DNA from: an uncultured virus (IMG/VR IMGVR_UViG_3300006737_000028)
Lineage: Duplodnaviria; Heunggongvirae; Uroviricota; Caudoviricetes
Length of the DNA: 64,000 bases
IMG/VR virus record: IMGVR_UViG_3300006737_000028
Direction: 5' to 3' (one strand)
In this document: in pieces, positions 27,449 through 47,186 of the stretch
Position numbering within the stretch: position 1 is the stretch's first letter
Layout: each line of letters begins with the position of its first letter
Program-made: the position numbers and the translations under genes
Notes under the pieces: model-generated
Told to the model about the DNA's origin: nothing
The model's input: only the letters and a program-made list of their open reading frames with translations
The model's database searches: none

Positions 27449-27598
27449 ATGGACATGAAGACCTACATCTATCTGCTCACTGGCATCCTCACCTATTGGG
27501 GAATGTGTGCGCCGGACTCTCCGAAGGAATTTGATCTGAACAGAGACGGGTGTGTTGACTGCATGGATCTCATGCAACTGATCTGGAATTTCATGTGA
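27449..27598 (+). CDS. 49-aa protein with a dockerin/EF-hand-like motif
   Basis: Translated by hand: MDMKTYIYLLTGILTYWGMCAPDSPKEFDLNRDGCVDCMDLMQLIWNFM; AAGGA RBS. Confidence 0.6.
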   Translation: MDMKTYIYLLTGILTYWGMCAPDSPKEFDLNRDGCVDCMDLMQLIWNFM

Positions 27599-27602
27599 TC
27601 AC

Positions 27603-27983
27603 ATGATTGATTGTCTTGAACTATGTGATACGGCGTTTCCTATTGCCAAAGAAATCAATAGGAGTCAAAAGCATGTGTCGTTTATTCTAGACAGAAAGGG
27701 TAAGATAGTTTCGATTGGGACGAACACACGAAAGACACATCCAAAAGCCATGGAACATGGTTATCGCTTCTGTGAATTGCACAGCGAATTGGATTGTTAC
27801 CTTCGTCTTCCTCAGTCTCGTCGCTCTGATAAACTTACTCTAGTAAATTTTAGATTCAATCGGTTTGGGGACATGAGAATGTCACGACCGTGTACTAAGT
27901 GTATGCCTTGGTGTAGGGTAGTTTTTGAACGAATCATATACACCACTGATTATGGATTCGAAGAAGTAAAGGATATAAAATGA
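27603..27983 (+). CDS. Zinc-dependent cytidine/dCMP-deaminase-fold protein
   Basis: SIGTN, LHSE, SRPCTKC, IIYTT. Confidence 0.75.
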   Translation: MIDCLELCDTAFPIAKEINRSQKHVSFILDRKGKIVSIGTNTRKTHPKAMEHGYRFCELHSELDCYLRLPQSRRSDKLTLVNFRFNRFGDMRMSRPCTKCMPWCRVVFERIIYTTDYGFEEVKDIK

Positions 27984-28156
27984 ACGTGAAGCAAATTATC
28001 GCAAACACCTGCTATGGACTTGGGTTCGCATCCATCGCACTTTCCGCATACGCATACTCGGCAAGCGGAGTTGATAACGCGACCTATCTCGGTCTCTGGG
28101 TTCCGTCCTTCATTCTGGTCGGACTGCTCTTCGAAAAGTGGAGTATCGAAGACTAA
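27980..28156 (+). CDS. Small two-TM membrane protein (58 aa)
   Basis: Translated by hand: MNVKQIIANTCYGLGFASIALSAYAYSASGVDNATYLGLWVPSFILVGLLFEKWSIED. Confidence 0.6.
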   Translation: MNVKQIIANTCYGLGFASIALSAYAYSASGVDNATYLGLWVPSFILVGLLFEKWSIED

Positions 28157-28176
28157 AAAAAATTGTATAAAGTGGG

Positions 28177-28204
28177 TTGACAGAAGTTCGATCCAACATA
28201 CAAT
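28177..28204 (+). promoter_or_regulatory. sigma70-type promoter for the tmRNA precursor
   Basis: TTGACA-16-TACAAT with upstream A-tract. Confidence 0.8.
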
Positions 28205-28210
28205 ACTTAT

Positions 28211-28270
28211 GTCATCGAAGAAGGAATGGATGACTGAAACCACACGGGGGTTCGAATCCCCCCGACTCCA
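28211..28270 (+). ncRNA. ssrA: Permuted tmRNA, acceptor piece (tRNA-like 3' end)
   Basis: T-arm GGGGG-TTCGAAT-CCCCC then CGACTCC-A, which pairs with GGGGTCG at 28493 including the G3:U70 Ala determinant. 5' boundary inferred from the promoter. Confidence 0.85.
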
Positions 28271-28285
28271 CTGAAAGGAACGGAT

Positions 28286-28489
28286 ATGGAAAGCAGAGTA
28301 GAAAACAAGGGTCGCAAAACAAAGCGTGAAGCGGCACACTACTGGCCTACTAAGGTCCGTTACAAGGGAGAGTCCCATTGGATTCTCCTCACCGATACCG
28401 AAGTCGTTCGTGCAGCGAAACGTGCGAAGGCGAATCCAGAGGATCGCCCGGGACTTTGGGGACGCATCCGATTGGTGTTTGGATTCTAA
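28286..28489 (+). CDS. 67-aa basic protein encoded in the tmRNA intervening segment
   Basis: GAAAGGAA RBS and ATG..TAA filling the gap between the two tmRNA pieces. Confidence 0.7.
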   Translation: MESRVENKGRKTKREAAHYWPTKVRYKGESHWILLTDTEVVRAAKRAKANPEDRPGLWGRIRLVFGF

Positions 28490-28492
28490 CAG

Positions 28493-28686
28493 GGGGTCGA
28501 ATGGTTTCGATGGGTCAGTTTGAAAAACTGGAGATGACCGGGAAGGCAACCTACTCGAATCAATGGTTGCAAAACTCAAACGCCAATGAAATGCGTATCG
28601 CTGCTTGACGCAGCACGGGCGACCTCAGCCTAGGGGAACAAAGAGGTACTCCTCACCTTGGACGAAAGTTCAAGATGAGGGTTTCA
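28493..28686 (+). ncRNA. ssrA: Permuted tmRNA, coding piece; tag ANEMRIAA*
   Basis: 5' GGGGTCGAATGGTTTCGA; pk1 with GCAACC/GGTTGC; resume codon GCC at 28582, stop TGA at 28606-28608; 3' end approximate. Confidence 0.88.
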
Positions 28687-28704
28687 AAACTGAATAGATG
28701 AAAC

Positions 28705-28910
28705 ATGTGTTGGGACTAATTACCCCGGCACAGGACGGTGACTGAATATTGTTCGTCATGTGATAAAAGGTACTGTCTTCCCTGTAGTGGGGTGCCAATG
28801 CTCAAATGAGTGAGGTAGCGTATAACTAACGCAAGGTAGGTGCGAGTAGGATCAAATTCACTAGCGTGAATCCGAAAGTTGGTGGTAAATTGTGAGTCCA
28901 CCCCGTCCAC
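28705..28910 (+). ncRNA. Candidate multi-stem structured RNA
   Basis: Closing helix GGACGG/CCGTCC enclosing several hairpins; no credible ORF. Confidence 0.5.
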
Positions 28911-28922
28911 GATCTTCAAAGA

Positions 28923-28963
28923 AGGGCCCTGAGTTTGAGATTTTCTCCTCGGGGCCCTCTTTT
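28923..28963 (+). terminator. Intrinsic terminator
   Basis: AGGGCCCTGAG/CTCGGGGCCCT stem followed by CTTTT. Confidence 0.7.
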
Positions 28964-29055
28964 CAATTATACATAAGGGTGTACTAGGGCGAACGAACTT
29001 CGTTCATGTGCAGGGACGGACCACGGGAATTTCGCTACCTTAGAACCGTCAACAA

Positions 29056-29084
29056 GAGGCGCCCTCACTTGGTGGGGGCGCTTC
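29056..29084 (+). terminator. GC-rich hairpin (terminator-like)
   Basis: GAGGCGCCCTCAC-TTG-GTGGGGGCGCTTC; weak U-tract. Confidence 0.5.
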
Positions 29085-29112
29085 ATTATAGATACTGATA
29101 GAGGAGAAACCT

Positions 29113-30198
29113 ATGAGCATAAAAAGGTTCCAGACCCACATCAGTGATAATCAAATTCTAAATGAAGGCGCGAGAAGTCGCGGTGAAGAGATGGAAGAGT
29201 TTATTGTTGCCGCTCTAAATGGTGATGATGAACCTATCTCCAAATTCGGCATTGAGACTGGGGCAGGCGAGAGAGTCGTTGAGCAAATGCCTTTCAAACC
29301 AAACAGTGGACAAGCCACCGTTCTCGGTGCTGAAACTATTGAGGTTACACAGAAGTGGGCTAGTTTCTGGGATCCAGACAACGTACCGGGATCCACCAAG
29401 ACCCCCAAGACAGACCTCATAGCGAAGTCAGACAAGATCTCCCTGAAGACCGGAGCGGACGCTCAGTTGATGTCAGGAGGACGTAACGAGAGCGTGGCGA
29501 CCTTCTACGCTGCTGTAGATCTAAGTGGTACGAAACTGGATGCTTTCGGGAAGAAGATCGCGGAAGCAATCGGAGATCTCGCACCTTCGAGTATCGCTGC
29601 TGGACCGACTAGACAAGAGATCAAGAAAGGCACTGATGCCCTCCTTGTTGCTGCCGATCAGGCCCACAAAGTCTTGACAAAAGAACTAACCAAGATGTTT
29701 GAGGGTAATCCAGAGTTCGCATACTTCTTCATTCGTGAAGCAATGACGGGCGAGACTAAGTTTGGTGGCAATGACGGAACATGCACCCACTTCCTAACCT
29801 GCGACTTCGATGGAGAGAACGTCCACTACATTCCTGTCACAGACGAGGCATACGTCAGGAAGATTGCAAACAGAGCGAAGGTTTCTGTTCGCATGAAGTC
29901 AGTCAGTGAAAAGAAAAAGGTTGGTGGTAAGAAGACTAAGACTGGACGGTATCGCTACTGGTCCGCAGTTGGCATCCTTGCAGACAAACTCACAGAAGAG
30001 GCAGAGACACTTGAACGTGATGGTGTGTTACTTACGGAAAATGTGGTCAAGAGACTACTCAGTAAGTTCATGAACTTCTTGAAGAAGTTGGTTTCGAAAA
30101 TCGTCGAACACATCAAGAAGGGTGCGAAGTACGCACTTGAATTCATGGGACTCCAACCAGAAGTTGAGTTCGTCAACAACATCGATTTCAGACCATAA
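29113..30198 (+). CDS. Hypothetical protein with PD-(D/E)XK-like motif, probably head-packaged
   Basis: TPKTDLI...ISLK; N-terminus KRFQTHI...LNE; TATAGATA upstream. Confidence 0.6.
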   Translation: MSIKRFQTHISDNQILNEGARSRGEEMEEFIVAALNGDDEPISKFGIETGAGERVVEQMPFKPNSGQATVLGAETIEVTQKWASFWDPDNVPGSTKTPKTDLIAKSDKISLKTGADAQLMSGGRNESVATFYAAVDLSGTKLDAFGKKIAEAIGDLAPSSIAAGPTRQEIKKGTDALLVAADQAHKVLTKELTKMFEGNPEFAYFFIREAMTGETKFGGNDGTCTHFLTCDFDGENVHYIPVTDEAYVRKIANRAKVSVRMKSVSEKKKVGGKKTKTGRYRYWSAVGILADKLTEEAETLERDGVLLTENVVKRLLSKFMNFLKKLVSKIVEHIKKGAKYALEFMGLQPEVEFVNNIDFRP

Positions 30199-41858: not shown

Positions 41859-43400
41859 TTACCCTGCGGCCGCGGCGATTGCTGCACCAGATGATTGTGT
41901 GTCACTTCTTGCTGGTCTTGGCATGGCCATATTTTGAACGGGAGAACTTGAATTGTCTACAACGGTGACGGTGTTCTGAACCCCCGCTGCTTGAGCAACC
42001 CTATTCGCGGAAGTGGTTGCCTCTTGTTGTTCTTTGAGTTCCGCTTCGGTAGGCATTCTTTGAAGGAGTTCACTGTCACGACCGAGCATCGCACGGGCCC
42101 GTTTTGCGTCTGCGGGACTATCAAATCTTCTATCCATTCGTTCAAGTTCTCGGTTATATGCTGTAGCATCACCGTATCTCTTGAGTCGTTCAAGCCTCTT
42201 GGCCTGACCTCGAACCTGTTCTTTGAACTCTTCTTCTGCTACCCGAGCAAGTTCCGCCTCATACATTCTTCTTGTTGATTCTCTATTCTTCGCCTCTGCC
42301 TCTGCATTTTTAGCAAAGTTTTTTTGCATCTCTTCCATGCCATCCGTTTTCAGGAAACTTGGAACTAAGTCGATAACACTCGCTGCGAGACTGAAGAACT
42401 GCTCTTTGATAATAGAAACAATCTGGTCAACCTTCATCGCAAAGAAGGTGATTGGAAACTTGAACTGCTCGTAGATAAATTCACCAACGGAAGTGAACGC
42501 ATCACTAATGCCTTGTGCTGCACCGGCAATCATGTTACCAATGCCTTCTATGGAGAAGTTGTCCACTACTGTGTCGTAGATAATTCCAAACAAAGCACCT
42601 ATTCTTTCGAACTGTGCCCTGATACTTTCTTTGAGCGTGAAGATATACTCTTCGAAGATCAGACCGAGTTTCTGAAAGATCGATAGTTCGGGGTCACTGA
42701 AGATTGCACCGATATTGGCAAAGAATAACTTGACTGGTTCGAACAGCGGATCAAGGAACTCTTTGACTGCATCATATGATAGGAGTCCAAATGTTAGTCC
42801 CTGAATGATTTGAGCGAATCCACCACTAACTGCATCCATGAGTCGGGCACCAATGTTACCCTCATCCGATCCTAAGAATCCCTTGATCGCTCCGGTGATT
42901 CCGTCGATTAGAATCATTAGGGGACCGAGGAACTTCAGTCCAATCTTCGCGATCTTTCCGCCTGTTCCGAGGAATGGTTCGATCTTCTTTGCAATCCCCA
43001 TTACATCATCAGACAATGCAAGGATCCTCGCTGCGAAAAGTGGGAGTCTACCTTCAGGACCAAAGAACCCACCCAGTGCTGCAAGAACTCCACCACCAAG
43101 AAGTCCACCAAGAATTCCACCAAGACCCATCTTTACTTTTTTCGCGCCTTCGCCAGTGCCTTTTTTCAGAGCGGAGATGCTACCTTCAAGTCCAAGGATT
43201 GCGGACACAAGACTCTTGCGTTCCTTTTTCTCCTCAACCGCTTCCTCTTTCTTCTGGATGCGACCCTTTTCATCTCGCTTGACATTGGATAGATCGCGAC
43301 CTTTGCCGCCACCACCGCCACGCTTACCACCCATACCCTCGACGGCGGACGAGAACTTGTCTACGGAATCACTAAACTTGTTTGTAGTTTCGTCAGCCAC
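41859..43400 (-). CDS. Tape-measure/baseplate hub protein (gp29-like)
   Basis: Helical with Gly/Leu-rich hydrophobic segments; follows gp26-gp51. Confidence 0.65.
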   Translation of the reverse strand: MADETTNKFSDSVDKFSSAVEGMGGKRGGGGGKGRDLSNVKRDEKGRIQKKEEAVEEKKERKSLVSAILGLEGSISALKKGTGEGAKKVKMGLGGILGGLLGGGVLAALGGFFGPEGRLPLFAARILALSDDVMGIAKKIEPFLGTGGKIAKIGLKFLGPLMILIDGITGAIKGFLGSDEGNIGARLMDAVSGGFAQIIQGLTFGLLSYDAVKEFLDPLFEPVKLFFANIGAIFSDPELSIFQKLGLIFEEYIFTLKESIRAQFERIGALFGIIYDTVVDNFSIEGIGNMIAGAAQGISDAFTSVGEFIYEQFKFPITFFAMKVDQIVSIIKEQFFSLAASVIDLVPSFLKTDGMEEMQKNFAKNAEAEAKNRESTRRMYEAELARVAEEEFKEQVRGQAKRLERLKRYGDATAYNRELERMDRRFDSPADAKRARAMLGRDSELLQRMPTEAELKEQQEATTSANRVAQAAGVQNTVTVVDNSSSPVQNMAMPRPARSDTQSSGAAIAAAAG

Positions 43401-45596: not shown

Positions 45597-46030
45597 AGAA
45601 TTTCGTCCTCTGTAAGAATAACGAATCTCCAACCCCGTAGTTCACAGAAGTCTACTGCGGACTTCCATTTTGCTTTATTCACAGCATATTGAAATGCCTC
45701 GACAATGAATCTCTTGTTCTTCTTGCCTGACTTGGGTAAGGCCGGTGGAGCGGTTTGCTTCTTTGGCTTGACCTCGATCATGACAGTCTCAACCTTGCCT
45801 TTTTTATTTTTTTGTTCGATTATGAAGTCTGGATAATACTTGTGTACTCGATTATCTTTCGGAGATCGGTATGGAATAGCGACTTCCTCTGATGCCCATT
45901 TCATGATGTTCTTATTTGAATCGAACATCTTCATGCACCGTCTTTCCCAAAGACTTCGGTACACGATTTTGGACACATCCCCTACATACTTTTGAGGATT
46001 TGTTGGATTATATTTTCCCTTGTATGCCAT
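45593..46030 (-). CDS. 4: Head completion nuclease (gp4-like)
   Basis: KYVGD..IVYRSLWE, WASEE, YYPDF, IEVKP, NKAKW. Confidence 0.95.
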   Translation of the reverse strand: MAYKGKYNPTNPQKYVGDVSKIVYRSLWERRCMKMFDSNKNIMKWASEEVAIPYRSPKDNRVHKYYPDFIIEQKNKKGKVETVMIEVKPKKQTAPPALPKSGKKNKRFIVEAFQYAVNKAKWKSAVDFCELRGWRFVILTEDEIL

Positions 46031-46064
46031 ACATACTTATGTATCACCAGAAAGGATGATTCGC

Positions 46065-47186
46065 ATGGCAGAAGAAACTTTTATCCCATCTCCGGGGTCA
46101 ATTGGTAATAATCCGGGCGTTGACGCCGGTGCGGATGGTGTTGGTGCATCTAGTCAGTTAGATGGATTCAATGCCAAGGCTACAGGGTCTATTCTTGAGA
46201 AAGCATCACAGTCGTATGGCAATAGTGGAGTTCTCGGTTCTTTTGATGGAAAAGGCCAGTTCCTCAAGTATCCAGAGGATCTAGAGGGAAGCACAGAGTA
46301 TTCCAACTTTCTGATGTTCAAGATCTTCCAGCGTCAGAGTTTGAATCTACAAACTCAATACGACAGACTTACCTCGGCACTGAGTGGTGCTTCTGAGTCT
46401 GCTGGTGAACTGATCACTGGAAATTCACAAGAGCAATCACAAGCAATTTCGAATGCAGGTCAGGGTATTCTAGATGCAAACTTAGGCGAGACTGGGTTGG
46501 CTGGATTCAATAAGACTATTGCAGATACTCGACTTGCAAAGGCCAAGACAGATACCAAAGATGTGATCGTCCTTGGAATGAATACAGGCATTCAACTCAG
46601 TGATAACTTGTCATACACAGAAAATAACTTCGGTACGGTCAAGGGAATTCTGGAAGGTAATATGCTCGCGACCTTTTTCCCCAAAGCAATGGCAGCGGGA
46701 CTGGGCGCAGTGGATACCGTTTCCAAATTCGTAGGTGCTGACATGAATACAGAACAAGCATTCAACTCAATCGTCGGTGCAGTGTCCAACCCAAGAAAAG
46801 AAATGACGTTCGAGGGAGTACAGATCAGAACGTATGACATGTCTTTCAACTTCTCTCCCAGATCTCGGACAGAAGCAGAGGCAGCATTGCAAATTGTTCG
46901 TATGTTTAGGTTCCACGCATATCCAGAAGTATCGCCAAACAGGGCATTCTACTCATTCCCATCTGAGTTTGAAATTCACCCTTTCATTGTTAGAAATGGT
47001 ATCTCCAGAGAAAATACAAATCTGCCTAAGTTCCCCAGAGCGTACCTTACTAGCGTGCAAACAAACTATACTCCCAATGAGTACATGACATCGTTCGAAG
47101 ATGGAACACCAACCCAACTAACCTTATCACTAAGTTTCCAAGAGGCAGAAGCACTCAGCAGGAACCACATCAAGGCAGGCTTCTGA
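46065..47186 (+). CDS. 48: Baseplate tail tube cap (gp48-like)
   Basis: LKYP, NPRKEMTFEG..IRTY.MSFNFSPRS..EA, FPSEF, LSLSFQE. Confidence 0.85.
   Translation: MAEETFIPSPGSIGNNPGVDAGADGVGASSQLDGFNAKATGSILEKASQSYGNSGVLGSFDGKGQFLKYPEDLEGSTEYSNFLMFKIFQRQSLNLQTQYDRLTSALSGASESAGELITGNSQEQSQAISNAGQGILDANLGETGLAGFNKTIADTRLAKAKTDTKDVIVLGMNTGIQLSDNLSYTENNFGTVKGILEGNMLATFFPKAMAAGLGAVDTVSKFVGADMNTEQAFNSIVGAVSNPRKEMTFEGVQIRTYDMSFNFSPRSRTEAEAALQIVRMFRFHAYPEVSPNRAFYSFPSEFEIHPFIVRNGISRENTNLPKFPRAYLTSVQTNYTPNEYMTSFEDGTPTQLTLSLSFQEAEALSRNHIKAGF

Follow-up and report, generated by a model that had tools for sequence, protein, structure and literature searches.

Circularly permuted genes for two-piece transfer-messenger RNA (tmRNA) occur in both bacteria and phages. 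Of 133 unique phage tmRNAs, 53 are reported to be of the two-piece kind, 50 of them aquatic (PMC9004378). In permuted genes the spacer between the pieces is normally short and discarded. A 2025 tmRNA database includes 11,946 permuted genes, and for those of bacteria its authors describe one spacer as carrying an intact tRNA-Ala gene and another a repetitive element (PMC11915505). Here we analyse a locus in a 64,000-nucleotide (nt) stretch of DNA from an uncultured virus (IMG/VR record IMGVR_UViG_3300006737_000028; the window), where the segment between the two pieces of a permuted tmRNA gene holds a 67-codon open reading frame (ORF). The first-pass annotation, made from the letters alone, had placed such genes in Alphaproteobacteria and some cyanobacteria and Betaproteobacteria; the setting proved to be another one, a marine T4-like myophage, which belongs to a group known for two-piece tmRNAs (PMC9004378). 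We think it probable that the locus encodes a working two-piece tmRNA, the spacer of which serves as a permissive, exchangeable slot for an ordinary small phage gene expressed from the early tmRNA promoter.

The closest described tmRNAs are those of phage Melnitz and the pelagimyophages, likewise T4-like marine myophages in which an early promoter precedes a permuted ssrA gene (PMC9004378). The Melnitz spacer also contains a small ORF under selection, as described below. The window differs from Melnitz in that its tmRNA is of another lineage, with relatives that score best on the betaproteobacterial-type model (below the cut-off of that model), its tag is shorter and its nested protein is unrelated. 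With the permuted tmRNAs of Alphaproteobacteria, Betaproteobacteria and cyanobacteria (Rfam family RF04321) the locus shares its gene order and, presumably, removal of the spacer by tRNA-processing enzymes. A protein gene nested in a removed part of a tmRNA precursor is also seen in tmRNA genes with group I introns, where homing-endonuclease genes are reported in 36 of 883 intron forms (PMC11915505). Those introns, unlike the segment in the window, are self-splicing; they sit in the T-loop and code for LAGLIDADG nucleases by which the intron is mobilised (PMC11915505). The window segment has no intron or nuclease family match, and ordinary end processing would remove it.

Outside tmRNA, the nearest analogue is the intervening sequence in helix 45 of Coxiella 23S ribosomal RNA, an ORF-bearing segment (S23p) that is cut from a stable-RNA precursor and has been described as a selfish element (PMC4990558). 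The window ORF differs from S23p in being under clear purifying selection and in occurring free-standing as well. The tRNA-tufB operon of E. coli also yields stable RNA and messenger RNA (mRNA) from one transcript, split by RNase P and other enzymes; there the mRNA lies beside the tRNAs, whereas in the window the acceptor stem of one RNA gene encloses it in a loop. Our literature searches, supplementary tables excluded, brought up no earlier account of a permuted tmRNA with a protein gene in its spacer. The main text of the Melnitz paper describes no spacer gene (PMC9004378), and the main text of the report on permuted and intron-bearing genes mentions none, using "protein-coding" only for the intron endonucleases (PMC11915505).

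tmRNA genes are generally treated as RNA-only, and annotation pipelines label the whole span ssrA and overlook genes inside it, as in the Melnitz record. Where a gene is nested in this way, a single transcript must act as messenger and as stable-RNA precursor, which would make the locus a natural system for the competition of translation with tRNA-type processing on one molecule. The permuted gene form could thus be a place for phages to park and exchange small genes, and a widespread, unnamed family of small proteins gains a testable setting.

A permuted tmRNA gene and its paired pieces

The locus is a circularly permuted two-piece tmRNA gene on the + strand. ARAGORN called a permuted tmRNA only (28179-28699, tag ANEMRIAA*), and the permuted-tmRNA covariance model of Rfam (RF04321, tmRNA_permuted) matched 28210-28608 at 71.3 bits, above its gathering score of 47 (E 1e-11). 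This match spans model positions 1-213 of 213, with the ORF appearing as a single long insertion. The two programs agree with each other, and every coordinate that had been read by eye for the two pieces holds.

The acceptor piece (28210..28270; start from the RF04321 alignment, piece also called by ARAGORN) comprises the 3' strands of helix P2, the T-arm GGGGG-TTCGAAT-CCCCC (28246-28262), the acceptor 3' strand CGACTCC (28263-28269) and the discriminator A28270, the last three read directly from the sequence. The acceptor 5' strand, GGGGTCG (28493-28499), pairs with 28263-28269 in seven pairs, including G3:U70, and thereby closes a loop around the 222-nt intervening segment (28271..28492), which runs from A28270 to G28493. 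Two P2 helices are formed between the pieces, by ACTGA..CCA with TGG.TCAGT (28233-28242 and 28511-28519) and by GTCATC with GATGAC (28211-28216 and 28533-28538). The coding piece (28493..28700 by ARAGORN and RF04321, its 3' end not being mapped) continues with an H-type pseudoknot 1 (28539-28570; stems CGGG/CUCG and GCAACC/GGUUGC) and the tag reading frame for ANEMRIAA* (28582-28608), which runs from the resume codon GCC at 28582 to TGA. It is followed by a hairpin with the tag stop codon in its loop (28600-28614) and by a 3' hairpin (28651-28680). CCA is not encoded, positions 28271-28273 being CTG, and must therefore be added following 3' processing.

We also looked for a conventional 3' end downstream of the coding piece, which the first-pass annotation had named as the finding that would speak against a permuted gene; no second T-arm-like motif is present there at the locus, and the next one, on either strand, stands at 42188. 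The standard tmRNA model (RF00023) matches only 28174-28273, that is, the tRNA-like 3' end, with 21.8 bits. The nearest subtype model is the betaproteobacterial-type RF01850 (gathering score 84), on which eight relatives scored 32-55 bits and the window had no match at E<=0.1, so that the window is not assigned to the betaproteobacterial type. An Rfam scan of 27900-29200 gave no match to group I or other intron families at E<=0.1. Minimum-energy folds of the pieces and of the precursor were set aside, as they paired the conserved AAUGGUUUCGA region in place of the helices of the family.

Relatives of the tmRNA were collected from IMG/VR as 44 loci in which the 25 nt of T-arm and acceptor strand recur without mismatch. 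ARAGORN called a permuted tmRNA in 29 of these, a one-piece tmRNA in seven and none in eight. For 33 of the 44 we could place the 5' end motif downstream, and together with the window these loci gave 26 distinct sequences for the analysis of covariation; since the relatives were chosen by an exact match to the acceptor 3' strand, the acceptor stem itself falls outside this comparison. Covariation between the pieces, the absence of which the first-pass annotation had listed as a finding against its reading, is present in both the proximal 3-base-pair helix and distal P2. All 26 distinct sequences pair fully in the 3-base-pair helix beside the T-arm, with two, three and two pair types at its successive positions (UA/CG; UA/AU/GC; GC/AU). 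The distal P2 helix is GUCAU/AUGAC in the window and GGUAU/AUACC, GAUAU/AUAUC, GACAU/AUGUC or GAUAC/GUAUC in other clades. Compensatory changes are also seen against the near relative L009, both in P2 (UCAGU/ACUGA to UUGGU/ACCAA) and in pseudoknot 1 (GCAACC/GGUUGC to GUAACC/GGUUAC).

The protein-coding gene in the intervening segment

The space between the pieces is taken up by a gene (28286..28489, + strand) whose product, a basic protein of 67 residues, belongs to an unnamed family; the gene is recognized by its substitution pattern, by free-standing homologues and by a profile search. Its ATG follows a Shine-Dalgarno-like AAAGGA (28274..28279, read from the sequence) at a distance of 6 nt. 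The ORF begins 15 nt past the discriminator and, stop codon included, finishes 3 nt short of G28493.

Judged by the pattern of substitutions among its relatives, the ORF is a true protein-coding gene under purifying selection, which bears out the earlier proposal of a coding gene in this position. Homologues were found at 99, 81 and 64% identity. For the window against L053, nonsynonymous and synonymous rates by the Nei-Gojobori method were 0.155 (dN) and 1.54 (dS), a ratio of 0.10, with 11/8/32 changes at the three codon positions; against L052 the changes were 14/6/40, so that third positions account for 32 of 51 and 40 of 60 changes, respectively. The ratio was 0.04 for L052 against L053 and 0.23 for the window against L051, and all values lie within 0.04-0.23, below the threshold of 1 that had been put forward as a check. 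The reading frame is unbroken in all eight sequences compared.

A profile built from 11 members retrieved 1037 representative proteins at E<=1e-3, 62 of them at E<=1e-10. Many have a single domain of ~70-80 residues and many are tandem two-domain forms, and all members checked are named only "hypothetical protein". Invariant in the 11 aligned sequences are N7, Y19, L34, T36 and the motif R46-A-K-x-N-P-E-D53. The product had no match in Pfam or PHROG, nuclease families included, and no usable match in the ESM Atlas. An AlphaFold model (mean predicted local distance difference test score 71.6) has a basic tail, a beta-hairpin and two helices; Foldseek found no match to it in the PDB at E<=0.001. 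A likeness to COMM-domain and PUR-repeat folds (best Z 3.1 in VIA-align) is within noise, and no function was drawn from it.

These data leave very little room for the alternative that the ORF is untranslated and the segment conserved as a structured RNA, to which we give almost no credence. The segment by itself does fold well by raw energy (-72.9 kcal/mol), and ORF-free, apparently structured spacers of 95-96 nt are found in other relatives of the tmRNA. A structured RNA would account neither for the codon-position pattern and dN/dS of 0.04-0.23 nor for the intact frame in eight of eight sequences, the Shine-Dalgarno motif at a proper distance, and a family of 1037 representatives that includes tandem two-domain forms.

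Separate histories of tmRNA and spacer gene

Spacer length varies widely among the 33 measured loci: 12-13 nt in five, 27 nt in one, 31 nt in three, 95-96 nt in 21, 129 nt in one and 222 nt in two, the last two being identical to the window. The commonest, 95-96-nt form (among L005-L048; for example L007, L005 and L032) is ORF-free and apparently structured, with paired changes such as CCCGAAG..CTTCGGG to CCCAAAG..CTTTGGG. The 31-nt spacers (L037, L041 and L046) are a shortened version of this form and were missed by ARAGORN.

The 27-nt spacer is that of L009, which shares 92.9% identity with the window at 28489-29639 and 95.7% at 27528-28156. L009 has an intact permuted tmRNA (tag ANDMRIAA; 75.4 bits on RF04321) and lacks 28273-28488. 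It keeps the first ~14 nt of the ORF, without the Shine-Dalgarno motif, and is therefore a deletion derivative of an ORF-bearing ancestor. The reverse is seen in L051, with an ORF 93% identical to that of the window: promoter and ORF are kept, 28498-28676 is deleted and the acceptor piece is damaged (CGAGTCC) and partly lost. tmRNA and ORF are both present in L050. Counting the IMG/VR contigs L002 and L003 (= G001), in which the locus is identical to the window, the combined arrangement is thus found in at least three independent assemblies.

The ORF also occurs away from any tmRNA. A metagenome scan for it gave 22 loci, two of them with a tmRNA by ARAGORN. In L052-L056 (81-82% identity) it is free-standing, without tmRNA flanks, behind an unrelated gene whose stop codon overlaps the ORF start, and the DNA homology of the window to these copies is limited to 28283-28489. 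A more distant member of the family was found in a phage contig of 84% estimated completeness, which has no permuted tmRNA. As to conserved synteny, a check named by the first-pass annotation, the order of tmRNA and ORF is kept in L050, while the ORF stands alone in L052-L056 and the two parts have come apart in L009 and L051.

The first-pass annotation had suggested that maturation of the tmRNA would be coupled to the protein. Such a functional link, in which either maturation releases or destroys the ORF mRNA or the protein has the tmRNA or trans-translation as its target, would fit the close packing of the ORF (15-nt leader, 3-nt trailer), the promoter common to both parts, the recurrence of the arrangement in three or more independent assemblies and the presence of an unrelated ORF in the same slot of Melnitz-like phages. 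It is weakened by the free-standing copies at 81-82% identity with no adjoining tmRNA, by the distant member in the 84%-complete contig without a permuted tmRNA, by the loss of the ORF in L009 and of the tmRNA piece in L051, and by the lack of any fold or family match pointing to RNA or ribosome binding, and we regard it as unlikely. We see no obligatory link: protein and tmRNA share a transcript, and neither requires the other.

L051 also bears on the possibility that insertion of the ORF disabled the tmRNA and that the flanks are a decaying relic serving as promoter and leader, since it is in exactly that state, with promoter, damaged CGAGTCC piece and ORF present and the coding piece gone. 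A 222-nt loop with translating ribosomes on it could moreover hinder folding. In the window, however, all tmRNA elements are intact, and the differences from L009 in its helices compensate one another, which speaks for selection still acting on structure. The working-looking tmRNA of L009 itself descends from an ORF-bearing ancestor, and permuted genes tolerate long inserts, as in the spacers reported with a tRNA gene and with a repeat element (PMC11915505). Decay after insertion thus appears very improbable for the window, and a working tmRNA with an exchangeable spacer gene is the better account.

A second case of a spacer gene was found in phage Melnitz (MZ577097.1), where the annotated SsrA (45984-46436) scores 113 bits on RF04321. 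The Melnitz spacer, between ...CCTCCACCA and GGGGCGAA, has a GGAG site and a 54-codon ORF (L072:1584-1748) that overlaps the mature 5' end by 42 nt; in GenBank, SsrA is the only feature annotated at the spacer, with no coding sequence. Twenty-four relatives of the Melnitz type were found in IMG/VR, and nine of these were analysed for selection. The first 35 codons are kept in the nine, with dN/dS of 0.09-0.33 (codon-position changes of, for example, 8/6/19), and the C-termini are variable. The tmRNA tag of Melnitz also occurs with a short spacer that has no ORF (L093). A common origin of the window and Melnitz spacer ORFs was considered and rejected, as profile comparison with hhalign found no relation between them.

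One could speculate further that spacers of phage two-piece tmRNAs are a general exchangeable expression slot with an output gated by tRNA-type processing, and that the excised message, with its stop codon 3 nt from the end, becomes a non-stop message once slightly trimmed at its 3' end and so a substrate of the phage's own tmRNA. If so, expression of the nested protein would be self-limiting and confined to early infection. We offer this extension tentatively and think it unlikely.

Transcription, processing and genomic surroundings

Upstream of the acceptor piece lies a predicted sigma-70-type promoter (28177..28204, + strand), TTGACA-16 nt-TACAAT, which agrees with the consensus at 11 of 12 positions and ends 6 nt ahead of the piece; its predicted start (~28210-28212) coincides with the first base of the acceptor piece. 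Both hexamers are conserved in L050 and L051, with variation in the spacer between them, and L009 retains the -10 hexamer. Downstream of the coding piece we found a candidate manA-like structured RNA (28708..28912, + strand), which aligns with the full length of Rfam RF01745 at 49.9 bits, somewhat below the gathering score of 55.2 (E 1.8e-11), and is probably part of the transcription unit of the tmRNA. L009 has such a candidate in the same relative place (754-958, - strand; 52.6 bits on RF01745, E likewise about 1e-11). A terminator-like, G+C-rich hairpin running into a T-run follows at 28918..28962 (+ strand; -27.1 kcal/mol, z -5.0, with none of 200 shuffles as stable). A simple terminator scanner did not flag this hairpin, and the scan found no + strand terminator between it and the promoter.

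Assembled metatranscriptome contigs from four marine runs span 28245-28635 and 28234-28489 and so bridge both junctions between the ORF and the tmRNA pieces. All junction-spanning contigs carry G28461A, the P0002 variant. Cover in the four runs extends over 28234-28646 and 28702-28866, with 28100-28223 and 28875-29000 uncovered. Contig ends fall at 28489/28492 and at 28635-28646; we count neither these ends as end mapping nor the gaps in cover as absence of transcript.

From this arrangement, and by analogy with established knowledge of permuted tmRNAs (PMC11915505, PMC9004378), we infer the following course of events. A single early sigma-70-type promoter would give a precursor containing the acceptor piece, the ORF, the coding piece and the manA-like RNA and ending at the terminator near 28962. 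Ribosomes would load at AAAGGA, and translation of the precursor, or of processing intermediates, would yield the protein. Pairing in the acceptor stem (28263-28269/28493-28499) would loop out the ORF; RNase P would cut 5' of G28493 (28492/28493), a 3' activity would cut past A28270 and CCA would be added, with the acceptor stem and P2 holding the two mature pieces together. The excised ORF RNA, with a 15-nt leader and a 3-nt trailer, would probably be short-lived. A ribosome at the end of the ORF would occupy 28493-28499, so that translation and tRNA-like folding should be mutually exclusive on one molecule. Promoter use, cleavage sites, translation and what becomes of the excised RNA are in each case predicted.

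Several points weigh against a working tmRNA that hosts an ordinary, expressed gene. The loss of the tmRNA in a relative as near as L051 means that selection on the tmRNA may be weak. The RNA-library data consist of assembled contigs, which show presence rather than RNA ends and may include DNA content. Each of the two pieces can also fold into its own hairpin, in competition with the pairing between pieces (GTCATC/GATGAC within 28211-28234 and CAGTT/AACTG within 28516-28530), and the CAGTT/AACTG hairpin, too, has one compensatory change relative to L009; the precursor and the mature RNA may differ in fold here. Finally, variant P0005, known from a single contig, has ~17 residues (about 27-44) in the +1 frame of the window ORF before the frame is restored, which reflects either a compensated double frameshift, and thus relaxed constraint, or an assembly error.

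A glutamine riboswitch is reported in the 3' domain of the Melnitz ssrA (PMC9004378); our Rfam scan found no member of this family in the window or in the ten relatives scanned. In five of the tmRNA relatives (L023, L033, L038, L043 and L048) a tRNA-Tyr gene abuts the start of the permuted tmRNA called by ARAGORN or overlaps it by ~20 nt, which suggests that tRNA-Tyr and tmRNA are processed from a single precursor in those loci.

The window as a whole is part of the genome of a marine T4-like myophage, with genes for ribonucleotide reductase, CobS/CobT-like proteins, baseplate wedge and tail proteins, and three tRNA genes by ARAGORN. The gp6-like baseplate protein shares 35-37% identity with its counterparts in the Pelagibacter phages HTVC008M and Mosig and in the OM43 phage Melnitz. 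Among GenBank phages, neither the locus (blastn) nor the ORF (tblastn) had any match. An ORF of 126 residues upstream (27603-27983, + strand) had no Pfam or PHROG match at E<=0.01; by eye it contains H-x-E...P-C-x-x-C, a pattern resembling that of cytidine or dCMP deaminases. The region just upstream of the promoter is also variable in length: L051 lacks 27965-28155, including most of a hydrophobic 58-residue ORF (27980-28156), and L009 has 481 nt extra at 28155/28156 (L009 1316-1796).

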